From: an uncultured virus (IMG/VR IMGVR_UViG_3300022178_000001)
Lineage: Duplodnaviria; Heunggongvirae; Uroviricota; Caudoviricetes
Length of the DNA: 35,729 nt
Virus record (IMG/VR): IMGVR_UViG_3300022178_000001
Direction: 5' to 3' (one strand)
The notes below the pieces were generated by a model. That model was given only the letters and a program-made list of their open reading frames with translations, had not been told where the DNA came from and made no database searches. Position 1 is the first letter of the stretch. Every line of letters starts with the position of its first letter. This document shows, piece after piece, positions 3,564 through 34,673 of the stretch. The translations under genes were made by a program, and so were the position numbers.

Positions 3564-3888
3564 CTTTCTCCACCTTCTTACTAGCAGTAAATCGCTTAGT
3601 AGGAGCAGGCTTAGCTGGAGCTTTTTTAGGGGCAGGCTTAGCTGGAGTCTCCGCAGGAGTATGAGCAATGCTAGCTTGATCATATACCAAAGGGTGTCTC
3701 CTAATAAGAGCAGTTAATACTCTTGCCCACCTACCATTAAAAATTTGAGCTAATTCTCTTCGTGTCATAGGACCGCTAGTCCCTAGGGCTAGATACTCGT
3801 CATACGTAATAGGTTTTGTTACCCCATGCTGAATAAAATGAGCATAGAGTTTGTCTAAGGACGCAGTTGTTTGTCGTCTAGTAGCCAT
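3553..3888 (-). CDS. Hypothetical protein with Lys/Pro/Ala-rich tail, between portal and protease
   Basis: 111 aa, tightly coupled to both neighbours; PAKPAPKKAPAKPAP tail. Confidence 0.7.
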   Translation of the reverse strand: MATRRQTTASLDKLYAHFIQHGVTKPITYDEYLALGTSGPMTRRELAQIFNGRWARVLTALIRRHPLVYDQASIAHTPAETPAKPAPKKAPAKPAPTKRFTASKKVEKDDE

Positions 3889-21600: not shown

Positions 21601-24600
21601 GTTGTGGTAAATAAGACTGATTCAGAACTAGAAACTTCTCCTACTTTCTCTACCTTTCCATCTGACCGAAGAGCAACTAAATCTCCTAGAACTAAGTCTT
21701 CGTGAGGTACATAGTGTGCCAAGCCTTGGCGCTCTGTAGGTCTCCACTGTCCTGTAGGCTCATCGTACTCTAAAGTATTTCTGCTCTGTGGAAGAACGGT
21801 TTGAAGGTCTACATCGCTTAAGACAGTTAGACCGATATCAATTACTGCCCCTTCTACGCTTCTAGTAATCCACATCTGTGTTTCTGGATCCCAGGATATA
21901 AAGTCCGCAGTATACGGATTTTCGAGGTTAACATCGTCTAGATTTTCTAGTTTAAGCCCAATTCCATAACCGTCATCATTATTAAATCGAGTTGTTATAA
22001 AACCACTACCGGTCCATTTTACAAATCTTGAAGTATTTGCTGTTCCAATAGGAACATCCGTAAAACCTCCAACAGGAAATTGATCTAACTCAAATACATT
22101 TAAGGCATTAAGATCTTCTAAGGCTCTTGGTATTTCAGCACTGTTCCAGCTACTACCGCTCCAAATCAGAGCATCTAATGTAGATGGGCTAGCGGCATTA
22201 ACATTTAATAAATCGCCAATCTCATCGGGAAAATTCTGAGCAGTCCACGCCGAACCATTATAAACAAGACCCTGGCCTGAAGTAGCGCTGAGTACACTAA
22301 CATTAGAAAGATCTGTAAGTTCTAAAGTGTTTACACTCTTGATAGTCTCAACTATATCTTTTTGTATCCACTGTCCGTTATTGCCTGCTAGTACCGAATT
22401 TTCTGCGACAGTACTATAATCAAAATCTTGTAAATCGTCAGCAGTCCAGGAGGGGGTTATGTTCTCCATTCGAATACCAAACTCTACATTATCTACATAT
22501 CGAAGAATTTGACCTGTATCACGATTGTCTATACGAACATCAGTTAGTGAATCAAGGGAAGTTGCAAGTTGAAGATCTTTAGTTGTCCATTTTTCAAGTT
22601 CTGCATCCCATACTAAAAGCTCTCCATCTCGAAGCAATCCTGGTTCAATAGCTGTATCTTTTAATTCATCTAAGCGAATATTTACTTCTATCGCTTTATC
22701 TACGCTTTCTCCGAAAGTGACAAAATCCCCGTGCTCTAAAACATCAATATTCTTGTTTACAGTAACATACAAAAGATTAATATCTATGCTTGTAACTTTA
22801 GGCGCATCAATAAGTCTTGGTGAGATTACATAATCACCAATTTTTACTTCGTCATCAATTTCGGACTGAACTCTTATAAGGGTCCCATTTGTTTGCCCCT
22901 TCGAGGCTTGATTTTCAAAGTATACTTCCTGTCCTACAGATAAAAGCTCTGCGGCGCGAGTGGGATTGGTAATATTAACAGAGTCAGTACTGCCGCCGTC
23001 AACCCCGTATATATAGACATACTCAACCTCACCAAGCTCATCGTATGCTATAATATTCATACCCGAGTCGACTAAGGGAAGACGATCCTCTGTGAAATTT
23101 ATTGTTACTCCGCCAGCACTAAAAGAAGCAATAGTCATAGGGCCTATGGGACCCGCGTCTTGGTCATCAAGAACTAAAGTGCCCTCCCCTCCTGTGGTCT
23201 TTACAGGTATAACTATATTAAAAGTTATTACTTCTCCGGGGATTACTTGAATTGGGTAGGATACTGTTAAACTTAAGCGATCTGCTGAAATACCCGTAAT
23301 AACAGGATATTCTGTAATGCTTGATACGTATACTGCAACGCCCGGTACCACGCCTTCGGGAAGAGCAGGTTGTGTAAGAATAGTATCATATTCTCCTGGA
23401 GACATAGTAGGAGATACTACTATTCCCTCTGTACCCGCTACGTTTTGAATAACAGGAGGGGTACCAAAAGCACAAACAGCTCCTTGAGGGATTGACACTG
23501 AGCGGGAAACCGTAACAGATAGGCGATCTTCAGCAATTGATAGTATAATTGGAAAAGGTTTCGGTAGTAAGGCAACGTTATCTACAATGTCACCTGGATG
23601 AACATTTCCTGAAATTACGTCGGTAAACCCAATTATTGTACTATTACTATAAGTTTGATCAACAATACCTTGCCCTGTCAAGATTGCGTCGTCTATACTA
23701 TCTCCCTCTTCAAGAGGAGGAATTACAATAGTATCGCCATCTTCTGTTTCAACAGTTCCCTCACTACTTCCTCCACCAGGAAGAGGCCCTACGGGGGAGC
23801 CCTCATTATTGCCACCACCACTACCGCCTCCGGAAACAGTACCAGGTACCCATTTCGCCGCCTCGCTATTCCATACTAGTGCCTGACCATTTATTGGAGC
23901 AGTAGCTGTTGTATCTACGTCGGAAAGACTGTTTAAGTTTCCTGCAATTGAAATAAAACTATTTACCCACTTTTGAGTGGTTCCGTTCCATACCAGTGCC
24001 TGACCTGTTATAGGGCTGGCCCCTATAACTGTATCTGGGAGCGCGGAGATTGGAGGTATTGAGGGCGCATTTGGTACCCATTTTTGACCCTGCCACTGCA
24101 AAAAATGGCCTGTGGATCTAGGGTACGATTGATCATCCATATCAACATCTAAAAGGTCTTCTAGTTTAGAGGTTAATTCGAGGGACTGAGACAACCATTG
24201 TCCGGCTTCGCTTGAATAAGTAAGCACATGTCTATCTTGCGGAATTAGGATATTAACGTCATTCAGCTCATTAATGCTTACGCCGATTTCGGCAATAATA
24301 TCATTAATAAGTTTTGGAACCCATTCTGTATTAAAGTCGTCCCATGCAAATAAATGAGAGTTTGGAATACCCGTATTGTAATTAGTAAAAGTATCTACAT
24401 CAGAAAGATTATTAATTTCTCCCTGTACCTCTGCGTAGGCTGGAACCCAATTTTGTTTATTAGTATTCCACTGCAAAAATTGTTGAGACTGAGGAGCTAC
24501 AGATTTTGTGTCTACGTCTTCAAGCTCATTTAAGCTTTTGGGTACACCACTAACATCTGGGTTTGGCTCAATATCTCCAGTAACTAATACTTTATTACCT

Positions 24601-26837
24601 GCAACAGCTATTCCTATAGCACCACTGCCCACATCACTAGTACGTAGAGCCCCTCTATATATACGAGAGTTATCAATATAAATTTTGGTTCCTGGTACTA
24701 GTACTCCCCCAATACCTCCTGCAAAAGAGGTTGCCTCGGAGGTTCCACCAAGAATAGTAATTTGTCCAGTATTCCACTCAGGAAAGCCACTCTGCGGGTT
24801 AATAGGAGAGCTAAAACTTTCGTCTGCTATGCCGAACCAATCTCTAATATTAGTTATAGGATTAGTACCAAAAGTAATAGCTTTAATACCGCCTGGCTGA
24901 GTTAGAGGAATAAGCATACGGCTTTCCTCTTTATTAGTTAGCAATACAGGCCATAGTTGGTCTGTAATCAAAAATTCAACGTTAGAGTCATCAGAAGCTT
25001 TAATTGCGTCGTCCGTATCTACAATAGGGTAGCCACCGAATTCGGAGAAAGTAAGAAGCGTAGAATGTAAAGATACATTCCCGAGTTGGTCTTCTCTTCC
25101 CCATACAATAGTAGCACCTCGGGTGTCTTGAGACCCTATAATTGCTGGATCTATATTACTCATCTTATAAGGAGTTTCTACAGAATCCTGGCCATTTTCA
25201 AAGGGATAGTGAGTGTATTGCGCGCCTGTATAGTTTGTGTTAGTAGTACCATTATTTGAGTTAGTAAATCGAGTTATCCATCCTTGAGCAGGTACAGTAT
25301 TTGTTCTTCTATAGGCTACCCAACATTCTGAACCACCCTTCATGAGAGTGACAAATGGGGTAGTCATATTATCCCAAATACCGCGCGGAGTTCTAAAAGT
25401 GAGGAACAAGCCACTGACGATAGTGACAAAAGACCACCCAGTACCAAGCTCGTCAATAAATACACTTACATGACGATTTCCGATACTATTGTAAACAGTA
25501 TGAATCTGATATACTTCTTTTGTCGTAAATGGAATAGGCGGCTGAAAAAGCAGGTCTAAGCCATCGAGTTCTGCCAATCTTCCCACACCAGTACCAAGAC
25601 TCTCTTGGTCCGCATAATGAAAGACAACATTTCCACTCGCTGTATCACAAGATACTGAATGAGTACCAATAGGGGAAGATAAGGAAAAGTCAATTGGAAA
25701 CTCAGACATAGTTACTGAGAAGCCTGCGAGAGTAATTACTCTTGCATACCCTATATTCGTAATTGAGTCTCTCCATGCAAATACTGTTCGTGTAGTTGCA
25801 ATATCGTAAGAGACTGAAAATTCTCCACCAATGTTTTCACCAAAGTAGTGTATAGTAGGGTCGAGAGTTATTTCTATGCCTTGGTCATCTAATTCCCCTA
25901 CTCGAAACTCTCCGTCTCCTGTAGTATCATTGATGTACGCAATAATATACTTTTCTTGGGCTGTGCACCATATTGAGTGAGATTGAGAGCCTACTGCGGC
26001 TCCGAGACTTATACTCTGCCCAAATTCAGGATCAGCATATTGAATTGGAAAAGCTACAGTTTTACTAGTATCCTGAAGTCCGATGGTAACAGCACGACCT
26101 GCACTAATAGTTTCTCCAGCCGCAGCATAGACTTCCATTTTTCCTACAGTAGATGGAGTTCCTGCTACCCAAGTGCCAGCATCATAAATTAAGCTTTCAC
26201 CATCAACAGGAGGATTAGTTGTAAGATCTACATCTTGTAAACCATCAAGGTTTAAAATTGGAGTTGCTGGTACCCATTCAGAGCCATTAAACGAAAGAAG
26301 ATCGTTTGTAATGGGAGGAGTAGTTGTAAGGTCTACATCTGTAAGGCCTGCAAGGTAAATATTACTAAGTGCGCCTGTAGTGACAGTCGTCCACATCTCG
26401 CTATCAGCATCGTAAGCAAGAATCTGACCGTCAGAAACGGAAGATACGTCCACATCTTGAAGAAAAGACATGGTAGGAACTGTAGGGATATACTCACCTA
26501 AGCCATCGTAAACTAATACGCCTGTATATGTTCCAGACGCAGAAACGTCTGTGAGGTCGCTGGTAGAATAAGGATTTGCTGCATGATATGCGGCAATGTA
26601 TGAAGTGATCGCAAATTCAGTAGGAACTACCTGCTCAGGAGTTTGAGAGGATAGAGTAACATCATTTGTAAAGGCGATTACATCTAGAACTCCATCTGTA
26701 AGAGTTCCAAAAGTGAGTGTACCAAACTGAGCGTCATCGTTAGCTTCATACTTATTTGCATTTAAATAAGTAAAGTTTTCATCGAGCTCATCAAAAGTAA
26801 GTTCAGTACCTTTTACAAGGCGGAGGGTTAAAGCCAT
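12630..26837 (-). CDS. Giant modular fibre/adhesin with FG-GAP beta-propellers and LxDLxDV repeats
   Basis: 4735 aa. N-terminal LRLVKGTELTFDELDENF fibre-type motif; dozens of L..L.DV...G..L.(W/Y)....W repeats; FG-x-VAI...VGAP...G.VY(I/V)F blades; five copies of a split W.G.A...GL..G..YY...G module. Confidence 0.85.
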   Translation of the reverse strand: MALTLRLVKGTELTFDELDENFTYLNANKYEANDDAQFGTLTFGTLTDGVLDVIAFTNDVTLSSQTPEQVVPTEFAITSYIAAYHAANPYSTSDLTDVSASGTYTGVLVYDGLGEYIPTVPTMSFLQDVDVSSVSDGQILAYDADSEMWTTVTTGALSNIYLAGLTDVDLTTTPPITNDLLSFNGSEWVPATPILNLDGLQDVDLTTNPPVDGESLIYDAGTWVAGTPSTVGKMEVYAAAGETISAGRAVTIGLQDTSKTVAFPIQYADPEFGQSISLGAAVGSQSHSIWCTAQEKYIIAYINDTTGDGEFRVGELDDQGIEITLDPTIHYFGENIGGEFSVSYDIATTRTVFAWRDSITNIGYARVITLAGFSVTMSEFPIDFSLSSPIGTHSVSCDTASGNVVFHYADQESLGTGVGRLAELDGLDLLFQPPIPFTTKEVYQIHTVYNSIGNRHVSVFIDELGTGWSFVTIVSGLFLTFRTPRGIWDNMTTPFVTLMKGGSECWVAYRRTNTVPAQGWITRFTNSNNGTTNTNYTGAQYTHYPFENGQDSVETPYKMSNIDPAIIGSQDTRGATIVWGREDQLGNVSLHSTLLTFSEFGGYPIVDTDDAIKASDDSNVEFLITDQLWPVLLTNKEESRMLIPLTQPGGIKAITFGTNPITNIRDWFGIADESFSSPINPQSGFPEWNTGQITILGGTSEATSFAGGIGGVLVPGTKIYIDNSRIYRGALRTSDVGSGAIGIAVAGNKVLVTGDIEPNPDVSGVPKSLNELEDVDTKSVAPQSQQFLQWNTNKQNWVPAYAEVQGEINNLSDVDTFTNYNTGIPNSHLFAWDDFNTEWVPKLINDIIAEIGVSINELNDVNILIPQDRHVLTYSSEAGQWLSQSLELTSKLEDLLDVDMDDQSYPRSTGHFLQWQGQKWVPNAPSIPPISALPDTVIGASPITGQALVWNGTTQKWVNSFISIAGNLNSLSDVDTTATAPINGQALVWNSEAAKWVPGTVSGGGSGGGNNEGSPVGPLPGGGSSEGTVETEDGDTIVIPPLEEGDSIDDAILTGQGIVDQTYSNSTIIGFTDVISGNVHPGDIVDNVALLPKPFPIILSIAEDRLSVTVSRSVSIPQGAVCAFGTPPVIQNVAGTEGIVVSPTMSPGEYDTILTQPALPEGVVPGVAVYVSSITEYPVITGISADRLSLTVSYPIQVIPGEVITFNIVIPVKTTGGEGTLVLDDQDAGPIGPMTIASFSAGGVTINFTEDRLPLVDSGMNIIAYDELGEVEYVYIYGVDGGSTDSVNITNPTRAAELLSVGQEVYFENQASKGQTNGTLIRVQSEIDDEVKIGDYVISPRLIDAPKVTSIDINLLYVTVNKNIDVLEHGDFVTFGESVDKAIEVNIRLDELKDTAIEPGLLRDGELLVWDAELEKWTTKDLQLATSLDSLTDVRIDNRDTGQILRYVDNVEFGIRMENITPSWTADDLQDFDYSTVAENSVLAGNNGQWIQKDIVETIKSVNTLELTDLSNVSVLSATSGQGLVYNGSAWTAQNFPDEIGDLLNVNAASPSTLDALIWSGSSWNSAEIPRALEDLNALNVFELDQFPVGGFTDVPIGTANTSRFVKWTGSGFITTRFNNDDGYGIGLKLENLDDVNLENPYTADFISWDPETQMWITRSVEGAVIDIGLTVLSDVDLQTVLPQSRNTLEYDEPTGQWRPTERQGLAHYVPHEDLVLGDLVALRSDGKVEKVGEVSSSESVLFTTTATPSSASDYYGKSVYVSDNYYIVGAPGFENSTTGGKIEIYDTSTNSLLQVITNPTPGLATKFGESVSISDNFFVVGAPGYNSNAGRIYIYDLPGFTLSETIENPNLSTSTLDDQFGNRVQITNDYIVVSAITEEPINLSDNNTGVVYIFNPATGNLLHSIQSPTPSITGWGQSVAVGASGYIAIGHPLNNEVRVYQAATAGLLYTLTSPNNFEGNFGNSMGISTSGRLVVGAPNSEGGKIFVYNLVTGDFNYTITNPDRNISGGADKFGNTVAISNDYIIASATDERTIGTSWGTVYIFDVNTGRFLNEFKNPTDTNINWGYSLAVTNDYTIIGAPRLTIAGVGEIHTFSSSSFLTSNADNWVGIVEEDRLVADNKDVLVTTVGSVNKFVSGLETNKNYYLDGRGFLTLTETDYGVLGKATAETELLITGNVVSAETGVSYLNDIRDVDTVSKPPANNQGLVWDSANNRWSPKTIGYSNITTFGGLSDTSVASPTPGQSIQWTGTHWALANYIPQGSFVLNELSDVNTAGLEHGDSLVYSFILDKWIPQQTGTSNVFILDDLTDVDLQEITPVSNDVLVYNLEEDKWIPGAVSRVASLDDLTDVDLQTQAPTEADVIAYNSITSKWEPQLIANITVTSLSGLDEVDITSLGNNPLEGETLVWNAIDSVFRPGSPSLDTISLGSLGDVDTTTGGNVPEAGESLFWDGSNWVPGPTGDAVAAFIGDLVDVNVISYPPKELQVLTWDSSINRWYPRNGHSGGIEDFIAEGDILQGEVVSINLNGSVSRTGQSPFQPAWYKENPTPFGTASNDFFAYSLAASTDKLLVSADREDETGEIDSGKVYVYDALGFLEATINNNNINASPANDRFGFSLAIHGNLFAISAPFEDSGLNYQTGAVYLYNRTTNAITSQIVHPGLATFGSVQSYSPNNSQFGHSISLGGERLAVGAPFDSGNIAINSGVVYIVNPSPAVGEAQFPHIITNPNETGGSYNDQFGTKVALNSTGQYLAVASKNEGPSSTKGGVYIFDISNEEIDPVQVAYIANPGLGGGFSYNFASALKWDQVYPNLLAIGSYDSDTDYPEGYDQGRVFIWDLNTLDFRTVITNPNSYNNPTTGDRFGWSVDMKEGKLLAGATYEEQGYVGGKYTNAGKAYLLDATSGQLEAIFSNPNIYGDSTNEQFGYSVAIGGQGFNDLYHVGTPYVRNTISSDFNSGAVVTFDSQITTNADAWIGIAFEDIADGEVGNVTLFGGVAKNLFGLEAGSNYYLQVDGGYTLTLSPYGIIGKALSPNTLLITGDVESNTADQVNVLNDLNDVTSVTPQVGDGLVWNGSGWVTGAVSGGVSNIGELDDVFLPVPNLLQSGQVLTWNGVAQSWVNAATGSSNVAIINDLTDVDLDTIPPLEDQVLQFDGATWRPTDLPEGQRITGVASENITEGSIVLYGNTGQFKNVEISIGAFLASIPASVPSNYALFGSVITHQGDYYAVSAPGASAQGVGSYFGVVTVYDAVTDAPVRTFYPPREGYQVIANVSNQYFGESISIYGDYLAVGAPKGTINGAVQTGIVYVFRISTGSLVYIIPCPFNQNANDNFGASVSIDDTAILIGSPGYDSPTSFNTGRAYLYDFNDLDGYSYDVEEEEWPIIPPSKIFENSNDEGTPAGDAFGSVVSITPSSVIISAPSEDTGGTLSTGRIYIRNRVTTASIATLVNPNIDSEGFGTVLAYWPEKIIVGAPGYNANQGIVYIFSATTGALLHTIQSPEAIGDRFGVSVAIGEYQIVIGSETGKEGYPDSGKIHVYSNAAPPVYYGGFDNPGYNVSPSGERMGTAVAITPAGKAIAGAPYSDLSAGSQQNPAIDRGAVHLFDVSESAISSDAGEWIGIAAGTMTQGETGEVVILGGLTPFVYSGLVPATYYYANFDGTLTTNTTDYGLVGIATNSQQLLILGSISGVATMPDLSDVDFSSGLTPSHALTWNGQFWEGKFVSTITSITELDDVSLIDTPPEDTQALVFESLSGKWKATDIGYSNVFAFNDLNDVSISNVAVGQSLSWNGSQWVPETFSQVSTLDELTDVNTNVFKTDRDILEWDGEALEWTVARNVFGNFINIEAEGSIAAGEPVYITNNSKVAQIRGTEEITGTAVFENDFFQDISLSGYGRSIDIYEDLIVAGNPEFDLPGITNTGKAFVYSASSGELLQVLYPPTSYTYQQFGNTVATNGDLVAIIAAENPYANGKGKVHIYKGTTGEYLRSIEHPDPSRTTSNGFGYHQKSIDFQGNFLLVGDKNYRDPISNASLGRAFLFNAYTGNLVHTFEHPNSSAVNSRSFGTQVAMLDDGSKILIYDVLQDGLNSATAYIYDYAYDLVSTIEVPHYNADTIAINSNYLIVASTYSGYLYIHSLLDGTLLYTSGSAYLDYGQKSLSANEKTLVVTYGSNKGFRVFDIASRILLASETTSSVGSCASLFKTRLVYSTGYQAITYNLNDISISSKAADWVGISEGAYLAGDTTTIITGSGFVSALSGLIPGANYYVAVDGTLFPGATGFGKIGRAVSETELLVSSNTSNIDLDSDSTASLIAGIGDLTDVDTFTLFPTDGQYLQYNSVTSTWSPGDVSLPSLTDISLADIENNDLLLYSEGIWSNGTLATTNLSDIDTTVAPTASQTLIWNENTSKWEAGIPERALDSLSNMGSSVSTPTTGQILVYNTIGDQWSAVDNEFSLDGLTDVNLEGVTDNQFLQYNSTSSEWEPGTVATAVSELTDVDLTGVTEGQYLVYNDQDKWVPTTIEFAAALTDLTDVNAVGATQGQGLIYDTGTNKFELAIVGTSNVDTLEDLSNVSIPTTPNNGDVLKYNGNTDTWEATPTPSPAVVYATRNSFPAIGNLGDLSFAQDTGVLYVWEGTIWYNLKRTNAFYLVRAGQFTGPLTGTQLFQPQQTITLHEIRAQVDQPSGASLIFSVMRSGAEVQQFVIPPAAPFIEAAFTAGVVVGPADEITVDIISGPGTNLSIKFIYS

Positions 26838-26840
26838 TTT

Positions 26841-27128
26841 CTATCCAGTAATTACTAATGCTGCTATTCCAGCGGTAATCAATCCTGTCACAGCGATCCA
26901 TAATAATTTAGTAATGCTCTGCAGAATGCGGTCATGAGAATCAAGGTCTCGTGAAGTGACCGATTGCATAATTTCTAAGTCGGTAAGTCGTGATTCAATT
27001 TTGTCTCTTGAACTTCCGAGGTCTGAAATTTGCTCTTCTATCCTTGCTAAAGCAACTACAAGCTCTGTGAGCTTATCAATTTTATTCTCTATGCGGTCTA
27101 TACGGTTATTCTGTAGTTCCAGCTCCAT
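26841..27128 (-). CDS. Coiled-coil protein with C-terminal TM helix (XhlA/holin-like)
   Basis: RIDRIENKIDKL heptads plus LLWIAVTGLITAGIAALVI. Confidence 0.6.
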   Translation of the reverse strand: MELELQNNRIDRIENKIDKLTELVVALARIEEQISDLGSSRDKIESRLTDLEIMQSVTSRDLDSHDRILQSITKLLWIAVTGLITAGIAALVITG

Positions 27129-27576
27129 TTAATAGTTTTTCCATCAACTTGCCGTAGTTGCCTTGCCCAAAAGGGATTCCTTCATTTATCTGAACATTGG
27201 TTTGACTACGAATAGCCGTTGATTGAGCTTTCTCAAGCTCCGCGAGTGCTTTAATCTCGTCCATTCTCATTTTATGTGCCATCATCATAAGATCCGCAAG
27301 GTCTTTTGATGTGTACATTCCACTTTCTTGAGCTTCTTCAAGCTTTGCACTAATAATTTCATCAAGTACTGAGGCTATATTCCCTCTGTTTCGATACCCC
27401 ATGTCTAGATATACAGTATCAACGTATTTTTTTACTTCTCGAGTATTTAAAATTTCTACAATTCGTGACTCTGGTACCGACATATACGCACATACGTCTT
27501 TAATGTTACCGTATTGTAGGTAACAATTAGCTACTTCAACTCCTTCAGGAGATATTGTGGAAACTTCTTTTGACAT
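27106..27576 (-). CDS. terS: Terminase small subunit (T5-like)
   Basis: ISPEG..V...YLQ.G, EVKKY, GYRNR, LDEII..KLEE, AHKM.MDE.K, QTNVQ match recalled T5 TerS; ATG at 27576. Confidence 0.88.
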   Translation of the reverse strand: MSKEVSTISPEGVEVANCYLQYGNIKDVCAYMSVPESRIVEILNTREVKKYVDTVYLDMGYRNRGNIASVLDEIISAKLEEAQESGMYTSKDLADLMMMAHKMRMDEIKALAELEKAQSTAIRSQTNVQINEGIPFGQGNYGKLMEKLLNGAGTTE

Positions 27577-27583
27577 GACATAA

Positions 27584-27612
27584 ATTATACAGTAGGAGAT
27601 ATCCGTTGTCAA
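27584..27612 (-). promoter_or_regulatory. Sigma70 promoter of terS-adhesin operon
   Basis: TTGACA-17 bp-TATAAT, exact consensus. Confidence 0.85.
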
Positions 27613-27627
27613 GAAATATTTTTAAGA

Positions 27628-27655
27628 TGGTGGAGGCCCGAAGGCCCCCAGACCA
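27628..27655 (-). terminator. cUUCGg hairpin after barrel gene (terminator or stability hairpin)
   Basis: GGGGGCC-TTCG-GGCCTCC on minus strand; weak U tail. Confidence 0.55.
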
Positions 27656-27656
27656 A

Positions 27657-28235
27657 TTAGAAGTTGTAAGAGAGTTCTACAACGTGTGTTTCTTCCGCTA
27701 CACCAGTATCAAACTTGTATCCGAGGGAGAAGTGCTCAAATGAACGTGCAATTCCTACACCGGAATGGTCAGTACCTGCGAAGGCAGTAACATCGAAGTC
27801 CGCAATTTTTCTAGAAACGCTTCCCACGTAGTATTCAGCCTGTGTTTCCAGGTCATGATAGACGTATGCAGAAAACATACCATAACTTGCGCCAAAGTAG
27901 AGCTCCTGTGCTTCGTCGCTCAACTCTACCGCGTCACCGTAGTAGTCATACTGTAGGTATCCAAAGTCAACCGACAGGGAATCCGTAAGTTTGGGGGCGA
28001 AACCAACGAGGTAGTTTGCCTCCGTAGAAGCTTCAACACCTTTCAAGGTTGACGCCCAGAAAGTTCCATACAATCCGGCATCACTTTTCGCTGTAAGAGA
28101 GACTTGGAGCGCGGGGTCTTCCTCCGTTTGCGTTACTCCTCGAAAAACATATTGTGAACTTAAACCAATGCTTCCAGAAACTTCAGCAAGTGCTTCGCCT
28201 CCGAAAATCAACAGTCCCATAATTAAATACTTCAT
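27657..28235 (-). CDS. TorF/Gcw_chp (TIGR02001)-like outer-membrane beta-barrel protein
   Basis: Signal peptide, SQYVFRGVTQT...PALQ, GLYGTFWAS, DFGYLQYDY, ELYFGASY, C-terminal LSYNF (BAM signal). Confidence 0.85.
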   Translation of the reverse strand: MKYLIMGLLIFGGEALAEVSGSIGLSSQYVFRGVTQTEEDPALQVSLTAKSDAGLYGTFWASTLKGVEASTEANYLVGFAPKLTDSLSVDFGYLQYDYYGDAVELSDEAQELYFGASYGMFSAYVYHDLETQAEYYVGSVSRKIADFDVTAFAGTDHSGVGIARSFEHFSLGYKFDTGVAEETHVVELSYNF

Positions 28236-28295
28236 TAACTTCTCCTTTTTTACTTTCTCGAGAAATTCATAGTTTCTCCATTATTATTAAAAAAT

Positions 28296-28324
28296 AGTAT
28301 ATAATAAAATTTTTCGAAAGTCAA
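28296..28324 (-). promoter_or_regulatory. Sigma70 promoter for barrel gene
   Basis: TTGACT-17 bp-TATACT. Confidence 0.75.
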
Positions 28325-28576
28325 GAACAATTTTTCCAATCTTCCGAAGTCTCTTTCCCTCTTCCAGATAGTTTTTTCTCGTTTTTTCGAAATTGGTTAA
28401 TTTTTTCCAGGGGACTTTCAAAAAATACGAAAAAACGCACCCGTATCAGCTTTTTCGATTTCGATTTTTTGGATTTCTCTTTGTGGTTTACGTGAGGATG
28501 GGCGCGAGCGCGACCATTATCACTGGGTCTTATAACCGCCCCCGCCTACTATCATTCACAATGATGTAGCAAAAAG

Positions 28577-28593
28577 TTGGCACGGTCTATGCA
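28577..28593 (+). promoter_or_regulatory. Sigma54 (-24/-12) promoter motif 1
   Basis: TTGGCACGGTCTATGCA, GG-N10-GC. Confidence 0.7.
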
Positions 28594-28602
28594 TAGAGGG
28601 GG

Positions 28603-28640
28603 CGCACCACAATGGTGCAACGACGCACCATAATAGGGCG
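28603..28640. promoter_or_regulatory. Tandem NtrC-type boxes
   Basis: CGCACCACAATGGTGCA (28603-28619) and CGCACCATAATAGGGCG (28624-28640), 21 bp apart; consensus TGCACCA-N3-TGGTGCA. Confidence 0.75.
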
Positions 28641-28644
28641 GCCC

Positions 28645-28657
28645 TAACCTGTTGATA
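28645..28657 (-). promoter_or_regulatory. IHF site 1
   Basis: Reverse complement TATCAACAGGTTA matches WATCAANNNNTTR. Confidence 0.7.
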
Positions 28658-28700
28658 TTGTTAGAGTTTTTCTAAATTACTATCATATTGATTGAAATCG

Positions 28701-28717
28701 TGCTCCATTATGGTGCA
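28701..28717. promoter_or_regulatory. NtrC-type box 3
   Basis: TGCTCCATTATGGTGCA, about -110 from motif-2 start site. Confidence 0.75.
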
Positions 28718-28759
28718 GCCACACCCCTAAAATAAGGCTCTATCCTGGGCAGGCGCGCG

Positions 28760-28772
28760 TAACCTATTGATT
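28760..28772 (-). promoter_or_regulatory. IHF site 2
   Basis: Reverse complement AATCAATAGGTTA matches WATCAANNNNTTR, about -50 from motif-2 start site. Confidence 0.75.
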
Positions 28773-28790
28773 TATAAGGGAAAGCAAAAG

Positions 28791-28807
28791 TTGGCACGAC
28801 TCCTGCA
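28791..28807 (+). promoter_or_regulatory. Sigma54 promoter motif 2, upstream of first pre-early gene
   Basis: TTGGCACGACTCCTGCA, GG-N10-GC; predicted TSS ~28818, then RBS and ATG 28847. Confidence 0.8.
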
Positions 28808-28846
28808 TATATATAGATAGAAAGAAAAATTAAAGGATATAAAATC

Positions 28847-29041
28847 ATGACAAAATATACACTCTGGAGTGAGGTACAACGCGCTGATTTCTTGCCAGAA
28901 GACGGCAAGAGCTATCGCAAAATCGGGCAATATGTTGTTGCCTGTTCATTCGATGCTATAGATGCGGCCGCGGTCGCTGGCTACAATGTCAAGGCAGGCG
29001 ATAAAATATCGCTGGCTAACGGCTTCGAGATTACGCTATGA
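28847..29041 (+). CDS. Hypothetical pre-early protein
   Basis: 64 aa with AAGGA RBS. Confidence 0.7.
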   Translation: MTKYTLWSEVQRADFLPEDGKSYRKIGQYVVACSFDAIDAAAVAGYNVKAGDKISLANGFEITL

Positions 29042-29148
29042 TAGCTGAAGCCGCTGTTCAAGCAGGCTTCGGTATTCTTGGCATGATAATTGCCTTTGCA
29101 ATTATCTTGCCACTTGCAGGGTTACTCCTGCTCAACCTTATACCTTAA
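29038..29148 (+). CDS. 36-aa membrane peptide
   Basis: MIAEAAVQAGFGILGMIIAFAIILPLAGLLLLNLIP; ATGA overlap with upstream gene. Confidence 0.55.
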   Translation: MIAEAAVQAGFGILGMIIAFAIILPLAGLLLLNLIP

Positions 29149-29185
29149 TCGCATATCGTTATGCTATTTCGGTATATAAAAAGAC

Positions 29186-29214
29186 TGGACAATTACAGGA
29201 TACCCCTGTAAAAT
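29186..29214 (+). promoter_or_regulatory. Sigma70 promoter with overlapping palindrome, upstream of A2-like gene
   Basis: TGGACA-17 bp-TAAAAT; TTACAGG-N5-CCTGTAA at 29193-29211. Confidence 0.65.
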
Positions 29215-29260
29215 CCTACCCATGCAATCAAGCATAACACTACTAGAAAGGAAATAAATT

Positions 29261-29557
29261 ATGTCTACTTACACTGATAAAATGGTCAAGCGAATGCGCG
29301 ATATGGCCCCGCTTGATCTTGATAAGGCTAAAAAACTTGCCGACGAATTCGGTTCTGTATCTTATCGCTCTATCATCGCAAAGGCTAAAAGCGAGGGCGT
29401 TGACTATATCGCTAAAGCTCCTGCTTCAAAGCGGCCCAAAGGCCCAACCAAGCGCGAGCTAGTTGGTGCTATCGAAAAGTCTCTTGGACTGCCTCAGTCA
29501 GATCGAGAAAACTTAACGGTTGACGCTCTTAACATGGTTTTAGCTAATCTTGGATAA
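29261..29557 (+). CDS. T5 A2-like DNA-binding protein
   Basis: LA.EFG..SYRSIIAKA...Y..K...G.TK..LV..I resembles recalled T5 A2 (IAKAVG..SPVSVRSKL..AY.K...RK...VR.I); pre-early context. Confidence 0.65.
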   Translation: MSTYTDKMVKRMRDMAPLDLDKAKKLADEFGSVSYRSIIAKAKSEGVDYIAKAPASKRPKGPTKRELVGAIEKSLGLPQSDRENLTVDALNMVLANLG

Positions 29558-29756
29558 GATCGCAATAGGTTGCGGTTGGATTGGGGCGGCTTGTATGTCA
29601 GTCGCCCCTTTCATTATCGACACGCCAGCAGGTAAGGCTCTGGCAATTGTAGGGCTTGGACTCTTAACGGTGCAGGCTATTTGCAACCGGACAATAAATC
29701 TGGTATGCTTAAATCTCATTTCAATACTTGGATTTTCTTATGCACTTTATTTTTGA
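29550..29756 (+). CDS. Small multi-TM membrane protein
   Basis: 68 aa, 2-3 hydrophobic stretches, overlaps both neighbours. Confidence 0.6.
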   Translation: MDKIAIGCGWIGAACMSVAPFIIDTPAGKALAIVGLGLLTVQAICNRTINLVCLNLISILGFSYALYF

Positions 29757-30201
29757 TTTAGATGAAACGGTTATCGACTCAAGCCACCGCCAAGGTGAAA
29801 CGCTTGCGGAATGGATAGCCTTAAACACTCCCGAAAATGTGGCTAAGGATACGCTTTTGCCTCTGGCCGACCAGATGCAAAAAGTTTATGATGCTGGTCA
29901 CACCGTGACGGTTTGCACTAGCAGGGTATTATCTGACCACGATTTTGATAGCTTTCGAGCCTTGGGATTACGATTCGATAACATGCTTTCACGCAGTCTA
30001 TTAGATGGCAATGAAAACCCAGGATCTCTAAAATTGAGATTGTTGCAAGGCCTTGCAAAACGTCAAGGTATATCATGGGCGCGCTTTTGTCGAACGGCTA
30101 TGATGTTCGATGATAATCAAGACGTTATTGATACGCTAAAAAACAATAGCCTCCGCGTTATTAATCCGGTAAACTACAACTCACGAAATAAGGCGGTATA
30201 A
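29740..30201 (+). CDS. dmp: HAD-family deoxynucleoside-5'-monophosphatase (T5 Dmp-like)
   Basis: FDLDETVIDSSHR, DTLLPL, VCTSR, K, MFDDN; matches recalled T5 Dmp (WDLDGTIINSFHR, DTLLPL, ICTAR). Confidence 0.8.
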   Translation: MHFIFDLDETVIDSSHRQGETLAEWIALNTPENVAKDTLLPLADQMQKVYDAGHTVTVCTSRVLSDHDFDSFRALGLRFDNMLSRSLLDGNENPGSLKLRLLQGLAKRQGISWARFCRTAMMFDDNQDVIDTLKNNSLRVINPVNYNSRNKAV

Positions 30202-30205
30202 AAAA

Positions 30206-30937
30206 ATGACTAAACAATATTTTGCTACAATCGACAGCGAGACAACTCAAAACGAAAAAGTTGCGGATTTTGCTTGCGTTATCACCGACCGGAAAGGCCG
30301 CATTCATGCACAGTGCGCTGTTTTGGTTGACGGTATTTTTACCGATTCCGAAAATCATCCGCTCTTTTTTGATAAATCAGCGCCTCGCGATGCTCTATGG
30401 TCTAAGGCTTCGGCGGATCGTCGTTATGCCAAATATTCTAAAATGGTCGCAGATGGCTCGCGGATGGTCGCCTCGGTCGCGGCGATTAATCGCTGGCTTG
30501 AACGTGCCGTCGGAAAATATGACCCGATTTTAACCGCGTATAATCTTGCTTTCGATGCTGGCAAAATGTCAAATACTGGCATTGATCATACTATTTTTTC
30601 TCGCCGCTTTTGCCTCTGGCAGACGGCTTGCGTTAAATGGGCTTCAACAAATCAATACAAGAATTTTGTGATGCAAAACCATGCCTTTAATGCGCCCACA
30701 AAATTCGGCAACATGACCTATAAAACCAATGCCGAGGTGATGGCGCGATTCGTTACAGGTCAAGACTTGCCAGATGAACCCCACACGGCGTTGGAAGATA
30801 TTATCGATTATGAATTGCCAATTTTAAATGCGCTGGTAAAGCGCGGCAAAATGCAAGATATTATCGATTCGGGTGTGGGCTATAGCTGGAGAGATTACCA
30901 AGCAAAAAATCATTTTACTGCAAAAAAGGTTGCATGA
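30206..30937 (+). CDS. DEDDh 3'-5' exonuclease
   Basis: ExoI IDSETT, ExoII AYNLAFD, ExoIII HTALED. Confidence 0.88.
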   Translation: MTKQYFATIDSETTQNEKVADFACVITDRKGRIHAQCAVLVDGIFTDSENHPLFFDKSAPRDALWSKASADRRYAKYSKMVADGSRMVASVAAINRWLERAVGKYDPILTAYNLAFDAGKMSNTGIDHTIFSRRFCLWQTACVKWASTNQYKNFVMQNHAFNAPTKFGNMTYKTNAEVMARFVTGQDLPDEPHTALEDIIDYELPILNALVKRGKMQDIIDSGVGYSWRDYQAKNHFTAKKVA

Positions 30938-30938
30938 T

Positions 30939-31046
30939 ATGAAAACGAAAATTCTAGCACTTGCGTTTAAACTTTATATTGCCTATTCCATCACCGCCGA
31001 TTTTCTGTTAATCTGTGGCATTATCTACTTAATCATTGGGGCTTAA
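30939..31046 (+). CDS. 35-aa membrane peptide
   Basis: MKTKILALAFKLYIAYSITADFLLICGIIYLIIGA; AAGGT RBS; exactly fills the intergenic gap. Confidence 0.6.
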   Translation: MKTKILALAFKLYIAYSITADFLLICGIIYLIIGA

Positions 31047-31047
31047 C

Positions 31048-31662
31048 ATGAATCAAATTGAGACTTTACAGGCTGAGTTAAATGAGATTGTCGAAGGGTT
31101 GACAGGGCCGGTTGCGGTTCTGTTAGAAGGGCGCGACACTGCCGGAAAATCCAGCACGATTCGCGAGGCCACGCATTATTTGCCCATGAATCGCTTTTCT
31201 GTTCATTTGAGCAAAAAGCCTAGCAAGCGCACCATGAAAAATTGGCTTGCTTATTGGGCGCACAAAATGCCACGCGGAAATCAAATCGTTTTTTATGATC
31301 GCTCATGGTATTCTCGGGCGATGGTTCAGCGCTTGAATGGCTGGTGCTCACCTAAGCAATACGACAATTTTATCAAATCACACAAAATCTGGGAACGTGA
31401 TCAGAATGTCACTATGATAAAAATGTGGTTATCGATTACTGAAGCTGAACAACACCGGCGAATTGAAAAGCGCAAAAAATCACCCTTGACCTATTGGAAA
31501 TTTTCGCCCAATGATGAGCGCGCGCTTTCCTACTATGATGAGATGACCGCGCTTAAAAATGCTTGCATCGATGACGATTGGATTCATGTTGACTACAATA
31601 ATAAAAAGACTGGTATTGAGAATTTTTTGCGAGAATTAATATTTGCATTAGGAGAACAATAA
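31048..31662 (+). CDS. ppk2: Polyphosphate kinase 2
   Basis: Walker A EGRDTAGK, Walker B YDRSWY, KMWLSI...EQ..R, PL..WKFSP.D. Confidence 0.93.
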   Translation: MNQIETLQAELNEIVEGLTGPVAVLLEGRDTAGKSSTIREATHYLPMNRFSVHLSKKPSKRTMKNWLAYWAHKMPRGNQIVFYDRSWYSRAMVQRLNGWCSPKQYDNFIKSHKIWERDQNVTMIKMWLSITEAEQHRRIEKRKKSPLTYWKFSPNDERALSYYDEMTALKNACIDDDWIHVDYNNKKTGIENFLRELIFALGEQ

Positions 31663-31671
31663 TCGTGCCAA
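31655..31671 (-). promoter_or_regulatory. Third, convergent sigma54-like motif
   Basis: AAAAGTTGGCACG shared with motifs 1 and 2; -12 element is GT instead of GC. Confidence 0.5.
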
Positions 31672-31680
31672 CTTTTTCCG

Positions 31681-31736
31681 CGTTTCACGTGAAACATTTT
31701 TTAGCGTCAAAATTTTGGCGCGTTTCACGTGAAACA
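31681..31736. promoter_or_regulatory. Two parS-consensus palindromes
   Basis: CGTTTCACGTGAAACA at 31681-31696 and 31721-31736; each 15/16 to TGTTTCACGTGAAACA. Confidence 0.75.
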
Positions 31737-31796
31737 TTTTTTGTGAAAAAAACGAAAAAAAGCTTGACATGCCGAAAATTTCGGCGCGGGGGCGCC

Positions 31797-32042
31797 AGTG
31801 CGAAAGCGAAGTGCAAATCCGATTGGTGTTACGCTCTTGCGGGTCCGAGTACGGGTGTGAGAACCTTAGTCTCCGCACACGATTGCGAAAATTTCTTTTT
31901 GATTTTCAGCGCCGGACCGAAAGTGAAAAAGCGATTTATATTTGACCCCGTGCGCCGTTCCACGAGTGCAAAAACGAAGTGTAAAAGCTACCGCGCGGGG
32001 ATGTGGCAAACCGAACTTAATTTGACTTAATTGAACTTAATT
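31797..32042. repeat. Injection-stop-like repeat region: five 13-bp and three 10-bp repeats
   Basis: AGTGCGAAAGCGA-like units at 31797, 31810, 31922, 31965, 31978; (GA/TG)ACTTAATT x3 at 32013-32042. Confidence 0.75.
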
Positions 32043-32102
32043 GAAGCAAATAGCCCCCAACCCCGCTCGCCCCGAGCATGAACACGGACTCCCAGTAGGT
32101 AC

Positions 32103-32131
32103 ATTATAGCGGGTTTTGCAGCAAATTGCAA
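32103..32131 (-). promoter_or_regulatory. Leftward sigma70 promoter into the repeat region
   Basis: TTGCAA-17 bp-TATAAT. Confidence 0.65.
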
Positions 32132-32293
32132 GAGATTTATGGTGGGCAGGGGACAAAAAGACCCCGTACGGGGTTACACTTAATTTGAAAAAATTTTGCG
32201 CCGAGTCTGCAAATAATTCTTGACCCCGAAAGGGCAAGAGCGGCCCCCGGGAATTAATTTGCGTCTTTTTATGACCAAAAGAGAAGTAAATAT

Positions 32294-32347
32294 TTGACAA
32301 CCCAAACAAAAGGTATTATAATATATCCCATGTTAAGGAGAATTATA
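32294..32347 (+). promoter_or_regulatory. Early sigma70 promoter/RBS cassette copy 1
   Basis: TTGACA-17-TATAAT...TAAGGAG; 32304-32347 identical to 32630-32673. Confidence 0.9.
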
Positions 32348-32544
32348 TGTGTAAAAATGAGATAAAATACTTCCGACCAGCAGGGTGGGACTATAAAGAA
32401 ACTACAGTTAAGTGCGGTCGTACCGATTTCTTTGGGGATAAGCGTCTGTGTGATAGCTGTATTGATTTGGCTAGAAGCCAGCATGAATATGATATGGAAG
32501 CTGATAATGCTTGGCTCCGCTCTGCGGGCTGGGGAGAACTATGA
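32347..32544 (+). CDS. Small Cys-containing hypothetical protein
   Basis: 65 aa, strong RBS, four Cys including CDSC. Confidence 0.75.
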   Translation: MCKNEIKYFRPAGWDYKETTVKCGRTDFFGDKRLCDSCIDLARSQHEYDMEADNAWLRSAGWGEL

Positions 32545-32612
32545 TTACCAGTTTTGATTTCTGGAAAGTTGTGACCATATTAATTGGGCTAATATATTTC
32601 ATTGTAGGGTAA
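32541..32612 (+). CDS. 23-aa membrane peptide
   Basis: MITSFDFWKVVTILIGLIYFIVG; GGGGAG RBS, ATGA overlap. Confidence 0.5.
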   Translation: MITSFDFWKVVTILIGLIYFIVG

Positions 32613-32619
32613 AAAGTTG

Positions 32620-32673
32620 TTGACTCTAAAAACAAAAGGTATTATAATATATCCCATGTTAAGGAGAATTATA
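32620..32673 (+). promoter_or_regulatory. Early sigma70 promoter/RBS cassette copy 2
   Basis: TTGACT-17-TATAAT...TAAGGAG. Confidence 0.9.
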
Positions 32674-32674
32674 G

Positions 32675-32839
32675 ATGAAACCAGGAACTTTTCGTAGCTG
32701 GTTGGAGCGTAAGTGGCAAGAACATATTGATGAAGTTGATATGTTTGAGGGTACAATGCCCAACTACAGTAAAAAATGTTACTTTAATAAATACAAGTAT
32801 TGGTTGGTTCGTGAATTTAAGCATGAGATAGGGAGATAA
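32675..32839 (+). CDS. 54-aa aromatic-rich phage protein
   Basis: MKPGTFRSWLERKWQEH...YFNKYKYWLVREFKHEIGR behind promoter and RBS. Confidence 0.75.
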   Translation: MKPGTFRSWLERKWQEHIDEVDMFEGTMPNYSKKCYFNKYKYWLVREFKHEIGR

Positions 32840-32840
32840 T

Positions 32841-33281
32841 ATGAATACAATGGACAAGATGGATTTGTGTTTATTAACTATTGATGTAGTTAACGATTAC
32901 TTCCAAAAAAGCGTAGATAGATGGCAGAAAGAACAACAGTTCGAAGTGCCTCGCATTAATTTAGCAATATCTGAAATGGATGCTGATAGATATGCAGAGC
33001 TAGATACAGTAGATGCATTTCACGAATATACAGTTACACTGAATAAGTTGTGGATGCTTGAGAAAGATTTAGACACAGAACTTCTAGTAGGTATTGTAGC
33101 GCATGAATGTGTACATGCCTTCCAACTAACTAGAGAAGCTATAGAAGAGTTTCCTAGTAGTGGTAAAAGTGGTAATCCTTATTGGTTTTGTGAGTATGAG
33201 ATAGAGGCACGTGGGTATGAGAGAGCATTCGTATGGTTAGTAAATAAAAAAGTTAAGAAGCTTAGAAAAAAAAGTTCTTGA
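32841..33281 (+). CDS. Zincin-like (HExxH) metallopeptidase
   Basis: IVAHECVH...Q...PYW...YEIEAR. Confidence 0.75.
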   Translation: MNTMDKMDLCLLTIDVVNDYFQKSVDRWQKEQQFEVPRINLAISEMDADRYAELDTVDAFHEYTVTLNKLWMLEKDLDTELLVGIVAHECVHAFQLTREAIEEFPSSGKSGNPYWFCEYEIEARGYERAFVWLVNKKVKKLRKKSS

Positions 33282-33306
33282 CATTTAACTAAAATGCTAC
33301 TATAAT
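33278..33306 (+). promoter_or_regulatory. Sigma70 promoter
   Basis: TTGACA-17-TATAAT. Confidence 0.88.
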
Positions 33307-33348
33307 AGTTTACATAAATTAAAGAAAAAACAAAAAACAAGGAATTTT

Positions 33349-33648
33349 ATGATGAGTAATTACACAGTAGAGCAAGTTGAAGAAATGGTAGCAGCATATA
33401 GCGAGAACCCTTCACGAGAAACAGTTTCTTTCTTCGCAGAGAAATTTGAAAAGACAGACCGCAGTATCATTGCTAAGTTAGCACGAGAAGGCGTATATCA
33501 AGCACAAGTTGCTGTAAAAAAGACTAGTGGAGTAACTAAAGACTCTTTAGTACAAACTATTGAAGCTCAATTAGGTGTAGAACTGCCTTCACTAACAAAA
33601 GCTTCCAAAGTAGATTTAGAGGCCTTGGTACTTTCCATTGGTAACTAA
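33349..33648 (+). CDS. Second A2-like protein (paralogue of 29261-29557)
   Basis: Shares MS.YT...V..M, RSIIAK...EGV, G.TK..LV..IE..LG with the first copy. Confidence 0.7.
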   Translation: MMSNYTVEQVEEMVAAYSENPSRETVSFFAEKFEKTDRSIIAKLAREGVYQAQVAVKKTSGVTKDSLVQTIEAQLGVELPSLTKASKVDLEALVLSIGN

Positions 33649-34356: not shown

Positions 34357-34575
34357 ATGGCTGTTAAATTTAAACCAAATGAAATTATTCTGGATAGAGC
34401 TACGAAAGTAAAGACAAAGAAAGTTTTTCCTATAGCAGGAGTTAAAGCTTCTGAGCTCCTAGAACTATGTGCAAAACCTGAATCTGACTTACGAAGAGGG
34501 GAACGAAAAACCCGAGCAAAAGCACGAGTAGAACTAGCAAAACGAGGTATTGATTTCTCTAGGTCTGTAGTGTAA
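34357..34575 (+). CDS. Small basic hypothetical protein
   Basis: 72 aa, TAAGGAG RBS. Confidence 0.75.
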   Translation: MAVKFKPNEIILDRATKVKTKKVFPIAGVKASELLELCAKPESDLRRGERKTRAKARVELAKRGIDFSRSVV

Positions 34576-34634
34576 CTACGTGAACACGCTAGTTTCCAAA
34601 ACTAGAAATTGCGGTGCAACCCCGTACGGACCTG
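34561..34634 (+). tRNA. tRNA-Trp (anticodon CCA), 3' CCA not encoded
   Basis: Acceptor AGGTCTG/CGGACCT, D stem GTGT/ACAC, anticodon stem CTAGT/ACTAG with loop TTCCAAA, T stem TGCGG/CCGTA; A1-U72 and G73 Trp identity elements. Confidence 0.85.
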
Positions 34635-34673
34635 CCTATTTTTTAATTTTTTAACCTTTGGTTAAAATATTTC

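Follow-up and report, generated by a model that had tools for sequence, protein, structure and literature searches.

Centromere sites on phage DNA are known from the plasmid prophages P1 and P7 (parS) and N15 (sop-type sites), which are temperate, encode ParA and ParB of their own and have their own site sequences. The borrowing of a host centromere protein by a virulent phage has, to our knowledge, been established only for the phi29-type Bacillus phages. For phi29, PMC2731898 describes five parS sites, host Spo0J as the protein concerned, and segregation into the prespore. Another described system to which the present locus can be compared is the injection-stop region (iss) of phage T5, which is annotated at 9140-10149, where the left repeat of 10,219 bp has its inner end; a major nick is placed at 9748/9749, and the first gene of this left terminal repeat is dmp. 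For this region, Davison's preprint (10.1101/866236) reports paired DnaA boxes, DRE repeats and nine DRD repeats, and proposes that membrane-bound DnaA holds the T5 DNA. An earlier examination of the present locus from its letters alone (the sequence-only reading) had described the T5 region as repeat-rich and as reported to contain DnaA boxes, and this description is correct: by the T5 annotation and the preprint, the iss is an untranslated stretch rich in repeats, with DnaA boxes in pairs.

The DNA analysed here, called the window below, is the whole stretch of 35,729 nucleotides of the uncultured virus record IMGVR_UViG_3300022178_000001 in IMG/VR. Its TerL is about 50% identical to those of Vibrio and Pectobacterium Demerecviridae, from which we assign the window to a T5-like phage; a near-identity search of the 5-kb region among cultured phages gave no match. 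The minus strand (1-28235) encodes a head-tail adaptor, a protease-capsid fusion, portal, TerL, a 4735-aa FG-GAP repeat protein and TerS, and the plus strand, from 29261 onward, a 98-aa ORF, a homologue of T5 dmp (a polynucleotide kinase-type protein according to its PHROGs name), a 243-aa ORF and PPK2. The 4735-aa protein is one ORF among the structural genes (12630-26837, minus strand) with many FG-GAP_2 repeats (E 3e-76), and the apparently fused protease-capsid gene is a 718-aa ORF (1527-3683, minus strand) matching prohead protease and major head protein. Beside TerS lies a phage-borne Gcw_chp protein (PF09694; 27657-28235, minus strand) of a family described as bacterial; its Atlas neighbours are viral clusters only, and when it was compared with genome contigs for inference of the host, only a 33% match, in an Acidobacteria MAG, was obtained. 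Two sigma-54-type promoter motifs, TGGCACG-N5-TGCAT (28578-28594 and 28792-28808, plus strand), lie in the gap from which the late genes and the dmp-PPK2 row diverge, and two such matches were found in 0 of 100 shuffles.

The dmp-PPK2 row is followed by a gene-free repeat region, and downstream of it three sigma-70 promoters head small early-type genes (Table 1). ORFs drawn over 31663-32293 have matches in relatives in several reading frames and on either strand, showing conservation at the DNA level rather than the protein level; the two ORFs drawn over the parS site, 31665-32030 (plus) and 31648-31878 (minus), were rejected as genes. A search of this region against Rfam gave nothing above threshold and only one sub-threshold match (E 0.16). 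Farther downstream, a 51-nt direct repeat (32304-32354 and 32630-32680, 94% identical) spans a consensus sigma-70 promoter together with Shine-Dalgarno sequence and start codon and serves two different small early ORFs, and a tRNA-Trp (CCA) gene lies among the small early ORFs at 34561-34636 (plus). There are twin IMG/VR contigs: G001 ends at window position 28959 and does not include the locus, and G002 starts at window position 28837 and includes it. Onward in G002 follow the T5-like early genes for lysozyme, ThyX, NAD ligase and a DnaB-type helicase. Its early region (L006, G002 17001-33627) also encodes ribosomal protein S21, Hsp20, ThyX, MazG-like proteins, a dATP/dGTP diphosphohydrolase N-domain protein and a sigma-70 region-4 protein.

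Table 1. Features of the predicted parS locus and its surroundings (window coordinates)
Feature	Position	Strand	Remarks
T5 dmp homologue	29728..30201	+	tblastn E 1e-7; E 6e-11 for relative G005
PPK2 (polyphosphate kinase 2) gene	31036..31662	+	PF03976, E 9e-37
Gene-free repeat region, PPK2 to first consensus sigma-70 promoter	31663..32293	.	opens with both predicted parS sites
Two 33-nt repeat units, each predicted parS + ATTTTTT	31670..31742	+	units 31670-31702 and 31710-31742
Predicted parS copy 1, CGTTTCACGTGAAACA	31681..31696	.	15/16 to TGTTTCACGTGAAACA; core palindrome 31682-31695
Predicted parS copy 2, same 16-mer as copy 1	31721..31736	.	40 bp from copy 1
Spacer palindrome GCGTCAAAATTTTGGCGC between both copies	31704..31721	.	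counterpart in L008 and L012
GC palindrome GGCGCGGGGGCGCC	31783-31796	+	kept across wider clade, parS-less relatives included
GTGCGAAAGCGAA and GTGCAAATCCGAT after the GC palindrome	31798-31823	+	GTGCAAATCCGAT at 31811 is the exact T5 DRD pattern GTGCRAATCCGAY
Consensus sigma-70 promoter, first of three	32294..32322	+	12/12; others 32620-32648 and 33278-33306

The 24-mer CGCGTTTCACGTGAAACATTTTTT occurs at 31679-31702 and again at 31719-31742, within a direct repeat whose two 33-nt units are 91% identical, and each copy contains the perfect 14-nt palindrome GTTTCACGTGAAAC, the second at 31722-31735. The 16-mer CGTTTCACGTGAAACA around this palindrome fits in full the V. cholerae chromosome-I parS consensus NGTTNCACGTGAAACN, as given in Table 1 of PMC7022226. 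When at most one mismatch to TGTTNCACGTGNAACA was allowed, the whole window contained exactly two matches, at 31681 and 31721, and dinucleotide-preserving shuffles of the window contained 0.00 on average (0 of 100 shuffles with any match), so that a chance match to parS is excluded. These coordinates and shuffles confirm what the sequence-only reading had reported, namely a 24-bp repeat at a distance of 40 bp with a 15/16 match to parS in each copy. The two copies represent one duplication and should be counted as one independent event.

We investigated with which genes parS is associated in related viruses. A scan of viral contigs for PPK2 gave 74 loci, or 73 besides the twin contig, and parS with up to two mismatches was searched for over 80 loci (656,954 bases). 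Twin contig aside, parS was found among the PPK2 relatives in L008-L012 only, in each case immediately beyond PPK2 or separated from it by one small ORF. Six loci have a PPK2 identity of at least 63%, and L008-L012 are five of them; L010 and L011 are near-identical to each other. At the same threshold, parS was found neither in L013, a close relative of L010, nor within 4 kb of PPK2 in 67 loci with PPK2 identity of 33-48%. One more carrier, L125 (PPK2 identity 47%), was added by the scan for exact parS described below. In the carriers, parS lies 20-270 nt past the end of PPK2 or past one small ORF, which differs from lineage to lineage, and the gene co-occurring with parS is PPK2 and no other.

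A scan with TerS matched at least 599 stretches, at least 587 of them encoding relatives, and among the best 80, which were kept, 31 have 3 kb or more of sequence on the side of interest. Of these 31 loci, five have parS: L223, L225 and L226, which are of one type, L231, and L243, in which the site is weaker. Thus parS was present in all PPK2-bearing loci (5/5) and in none of the others (0/26). Four loci of two TerS types (L257, L268, L290 and L294) have the dmp homologue and a GC-palindrome element (...TTTCGGCGCG..CGCGCCAGTAGTAG) without PPK2 and without parS; these are the informative PPK2-less loci, L254 and L265 stopping short of the locus, and the other 20 have neither homologues of the dmp-PPK2 row nor parS. 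On a TerS tree of 22 of the 31 rows (nine were left out, the complete relative G005 among them), the parS label needs at least two changes. The parS-bearing relatives represent few lineages, which partly depend on one another, and the tie to PPK2, strict as it is, could stem from common descent of the cassette instead of function. Judging from L013 and from the four PPK2-less relatives that keep the repeat region, parS is dispensable. The cultured T5-like phages X1, PG07 and D386 of Vibrio, My1 of Pectobacterium, and T5 itself had no parS at up to one mismatch (0/5); T5 has two 2-mismatch matches, both at unrelated places. The lack of the site in these five phages, of which X1, PG07 and D386 infect Vibrio and thus a host possessing ParABS, is a point against a reading in which host ParB is used.

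What has been kept at the locus was examined with an alignment of 12 sites from nine contigs, with 30 nt on each side; information, calculated on 11 sites (L243 left out), amounted to 1.80 bits per column for the 16-mer against 0.39 bits for the flanks, which are randomised. The sequence-only reading had named the same locus in relatives as the place to check its proposal, and it is the 16-mer that is kept there, not a mere hairpin. Positions 5 and 12 switch jointly from T/A to C/G in L010 and L125, and the variant so formed, TGTTCCACGTGGAACA, is exactly the Pseudomonas parS (PMC7022226, again from its Table 1). At the outer base, T, C and G all occur. These variable positions fit the known degeneracy of parS, and a palindrome with compensating changes is also expected of a hairpin or of an operator for another dimeric protein. 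The single site of L223 has the left flank of site 1 and the right flank of site 2 of L012, so that the one-site and two-site forms seem to interconvert by recombination between copies.

The alternative that the copies, singly or as a composite, are a rho-independent terminator of the dmp-PPK2 transcription unit and nothing else can be judged by these data and by predicted folds. The copies lie 19 nt past the PPK2 stop codon, both were listed as terminator-like in a consensus scan, and in RNA copy 1 is predicted to pair with copy 2 into a bulged hairpin of 21 bp ahead of AUUUUUU, with a folding energy of -28.3 kcal/mol (z -3.8) that none of 200 shuffles equalled. Each copy alone, however, folds weakly, one at -4.1 kcal/mol (as good in 15 of 200 shuffles) and the other at -3.9 kcal/mol (57 of 200), and the T-run, defined as at least six T in the nine bases past the site, is found only at the two sites of the window (6 and 7 of 9), the ten other sites having one to three T. 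Terminators constrain pairing and not the exact letters of parS, and the single-site loci L009, L010, L125, L223 and L231 keep the 16-mer, separate hairpin-plus-T terminators adjoining it (in L231 a GC hairpin and T7 before the site, in L009 a strong hairpin and a T-run after it). We therefore regard a terminator-only explanation as very unlikely: the paired copies may serve as an intrinsic terminator of the dmp-PPK2 row in this phage only, and a terminator role does not appear to be what selection maintains across the clade. The sequence-only reading had offered weak hairpin-plus-U terminators as its alternative, which has little in its favour for a single copy (about -4 kcal/mol) but some weight in this window because of the pair, whose strong fold is not conserved.

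That the palindrome is an operator for another dimeric DNA-binding protein, such as an early phage regulator or a host regulator, with a coincidental or convergent likeness to parS, seems to us rather unlikely. Most of the small early ORFs of the window and of G002 have no family assignment and could leave room for such a protein, and a second palindrome, CGTCAAAATTTTGRCG, lies between the sites in three lineages (the window, L008 and L012; the counterpart of the window's spacer palindrome is CGTCAAAATTCTGACG or CGTCAATATTTTGACG in L008 and L012), suggesting a control region for multiple proteins. On the other hand, the full 16-mer is matched, both natural parS variants occur among the relatives, chance was excluded by the shuffles, the small intervening ORF does not accompany the site as PPK2 does, and a canonical host ParB would be expected to bind such a site regardless. 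A neutral passenger, a parS that lay beside PPK2 in a bacterial or plasmid donor, was captured with it and has simply stayed in place, would explain why parS is found only with PPK2 in the TerS relatives, and the two or more label changes on the TerS tree are as for a mobile cassette. Yet the contrast between site and flanks holds across PPK2 identities down to 47%, and the 67 more distant viral PPK2 genes have no parS nearby; we consider this possibility highly improbable.

The sequence-only reading had also called the region injection-stop-like, and this label stood in part. In its favour are the dmp homologue before the gene-free stretch and the GC palindrome with an exact DRD copy; against it are the lack of A1, DnaA boxes that are not enriched, and the PPK2-less relatives, which keep the region without parS. 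The T5 DRD unit GTGCRAATCCGAC is present in T5 in eight exact copies and one with one mismatch; the pattern GTGCRAATCCGAY was matched in 0 of 100 shuffles, and the window has one exact and three degenerate copies against nine in T5. In relatives only, the T5 DRE core ATGAGAATCATT is located 10-12 nt upstream of parS, exactly in L008 and L009 and with one mismatch in L125, and shuffles of the L008, L009 and L125 loci gave such a match in 16/200 and 6/200; both the DRD and the DRE matches were found post hoc and are taken only as suggestive. Twelve-mers shared with the T5 iss were at chance level (122/200 shuffles), and DnaA boxes showed no enrichment in the window (one relaxed box at 31742 on the minus strand, against seven in the whole window). 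No homologue of T5 A1 was found in the window, G001, G002, G005, G007 or G016, and the single A2-like match was weak (E 2e-4) and 25 kb away. Contig ends were considered as boundaries of terminal repeats and rejected, the start of G004 being elsewhere and the ends of G005 being contiguous in G002.

The GC palindrome of Table 1 belongs to an element of the wider clade, TTT(T/C)GGCGCG..CGCGCC-AGTG/AGTAGTAG (window 31783-31900; L008, L009, L223, L257, L268, L290 and L294), which is kept with or without parS and is often preceded by TTGACA, although a suitably spaced -10 box is lacking. This element is similar to the palindrome found in T5 at the major nick, and it could be a nick, packaging or RNA element. 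We conclude that the gene-free region probably corresponds to a repeat region of T5, and that parS is an accessory of the PPK2 cassette and not a core part of the region. The injection-stop framing of the region is thus weakly supported, and a role in stopping injection is unsupported.

Genes that could read parS were searched for in the phage and its relatives. ParB_N (PF02195) was found in 0 of 7 records (G001-G007), among which G005 is complete (101,258 bp, CheckV 100%), HTH_ParB (PF17762) in 0 of 6, ParA-type AAA_31 (PF13614) in 0 of 5 including the twin contigs G001 and G002, and integrase (PF00589) in 0 of 6. A Pfam search of 48 ORFs (45 of G002 and three small ORFs of the window) gave no par family, and Pfam and PHROGs scans of 23-24 window ORFs found neither parA nor parB, just as had been stated from the letters alone. 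In all 101 kb of G005 there is exactly one parS, and it is located at the same locus. From the integrase result and from a TerL nearest to Demerecviridae, the phage is predicted to be of virulent type. Because it has no ParB or ParA, the only plausible reader of the sites is the host chromosomal ParB.

We judge it moderately probable that the parS copies are selected loading sites for host ParB, carried on a PPK2-parS cassette that is accessory within an uncultured clade of virulent T5-like phages; the identification as parS is supported by comparative evidence from the sequences of relatives, and from it we infer that ParB binds at the sites and has an effect there. A ParB-CTP clamp of the host would load at 31681-31736 and spread over the neighbouring phage DNA, making a nucleoprotein complex between the dmp-PPK2 row and the early promoters. 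Our best guess for the effect is that the phage DNA would be positioned or retained by the segregation machinery of the host, as in phi29; a secondary possibility is that transcription out of the PPK2 row would be blocked, and further options are insulation of the repeat region from this transcription, titration of ParB by replicated phage DNA and a hold on entering DNA. The sequence-only reading had proposed that a lytic phage would borrow host ParB/SMC to ratchet, pause or position entering DNA, or would sequester ParB. A 16-mer so near to the consensus would be bound in any host with a canonical ParB, and according to PMC7022226 only a few families, Enterobacteriaceae among them, lack par genes. 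A more specific version, which we think quite unlikely, is that a ParB-CTP clamp on early-entering DNA would replace Davison's DnaA in holding, pacing or positioning the genome, or that PPK2 and parS would form one cassette tying a polyphosphate-driven nucleotide supply to a CTP-dependent clamp. If true, it would provide a concrete host factor for the unexplained injection pause of T5-type phages, or for the use of ParB by phages in Gram-negative-type hosts.

The significance of these findings is that parS would be under selection in a widespread uncultured T5-like group, with at least 587 TerS-related IMG/VR contigs, and that the control region around it is similar to the injection-stop region of T5. 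Our literature search found no paper on parS sites in Demerecviridae or T5-like phages; what is new here is the tandem form, the linkage to PPK2, the finding that parS is missing where relatives have no PPK2, and the comparison of motifs with those of T5. The scan of IMG/VR for exact parS gave at least 126 stretches, from which 80 loci were taken, and single matches among these may be due to chance. On 12 contigs, 16 of the 80 loci have two to five exact parS within 3 kb, including L127, L130, L148, L097/L098, L107/L108 and L124, and these are unrelated viral contigs. Among the parS-bearing contigs of at least 30 kb (22, from the 80 loci of at least 126 stretches), ParB_N was found in one, and in none of the 11 that are at least 90% complete. 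The large parS contigs G015, G020, G024, G017 and G009 were considered as T5-like and rejected, having no TerL match. Orphan host-type parS may be common in phages, which hints at a general habit of using host ParB.

When the locus is compared with the known systems, it differs from P1, P7 and N15 in that the present phage has neither ParA and ParB nor an integrase. With the chromosomal ParABS centromere (parS, TGTTNCACGTGAAACA) it shares the same 16-bp palindrome, in the variants of Vibrio chromosome I and Pseudomonas, and the tandem clustering of sites as seen near bacterial origins; it differs in that parA and parB are not present in cis, the carrier is a lytic phage, and no origin or par operon adjoins. 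The likeness to the T5 iss consists in a gene-free repeat region near a dmp homologue, in a GC palindrome followed by a DRD-type motif, and in paired sites for a protein of the host origin region, which is DnaA in T5 and predicted to be ParB here; A1 was not found here. Phage phi29, a small protein-primed podovirus, has a spore-former as its host, dispersed sites and entrapment in the spore as their purpose, whereas the phage studied here is a T5-like phage of siphovirus type and about 100 kb, whose promoters are of sigma-70 and sigma-54 type and for which a dormancy route is not known; it has one or two sites at one locus tied to a PPK2 cassette. What it shares with phi29 and Nf is that a virulent phage without a ParB of its own carries chromosomal-type parS, to which, in phi29, the host Spo0J/ParB binds (PMC2731898).
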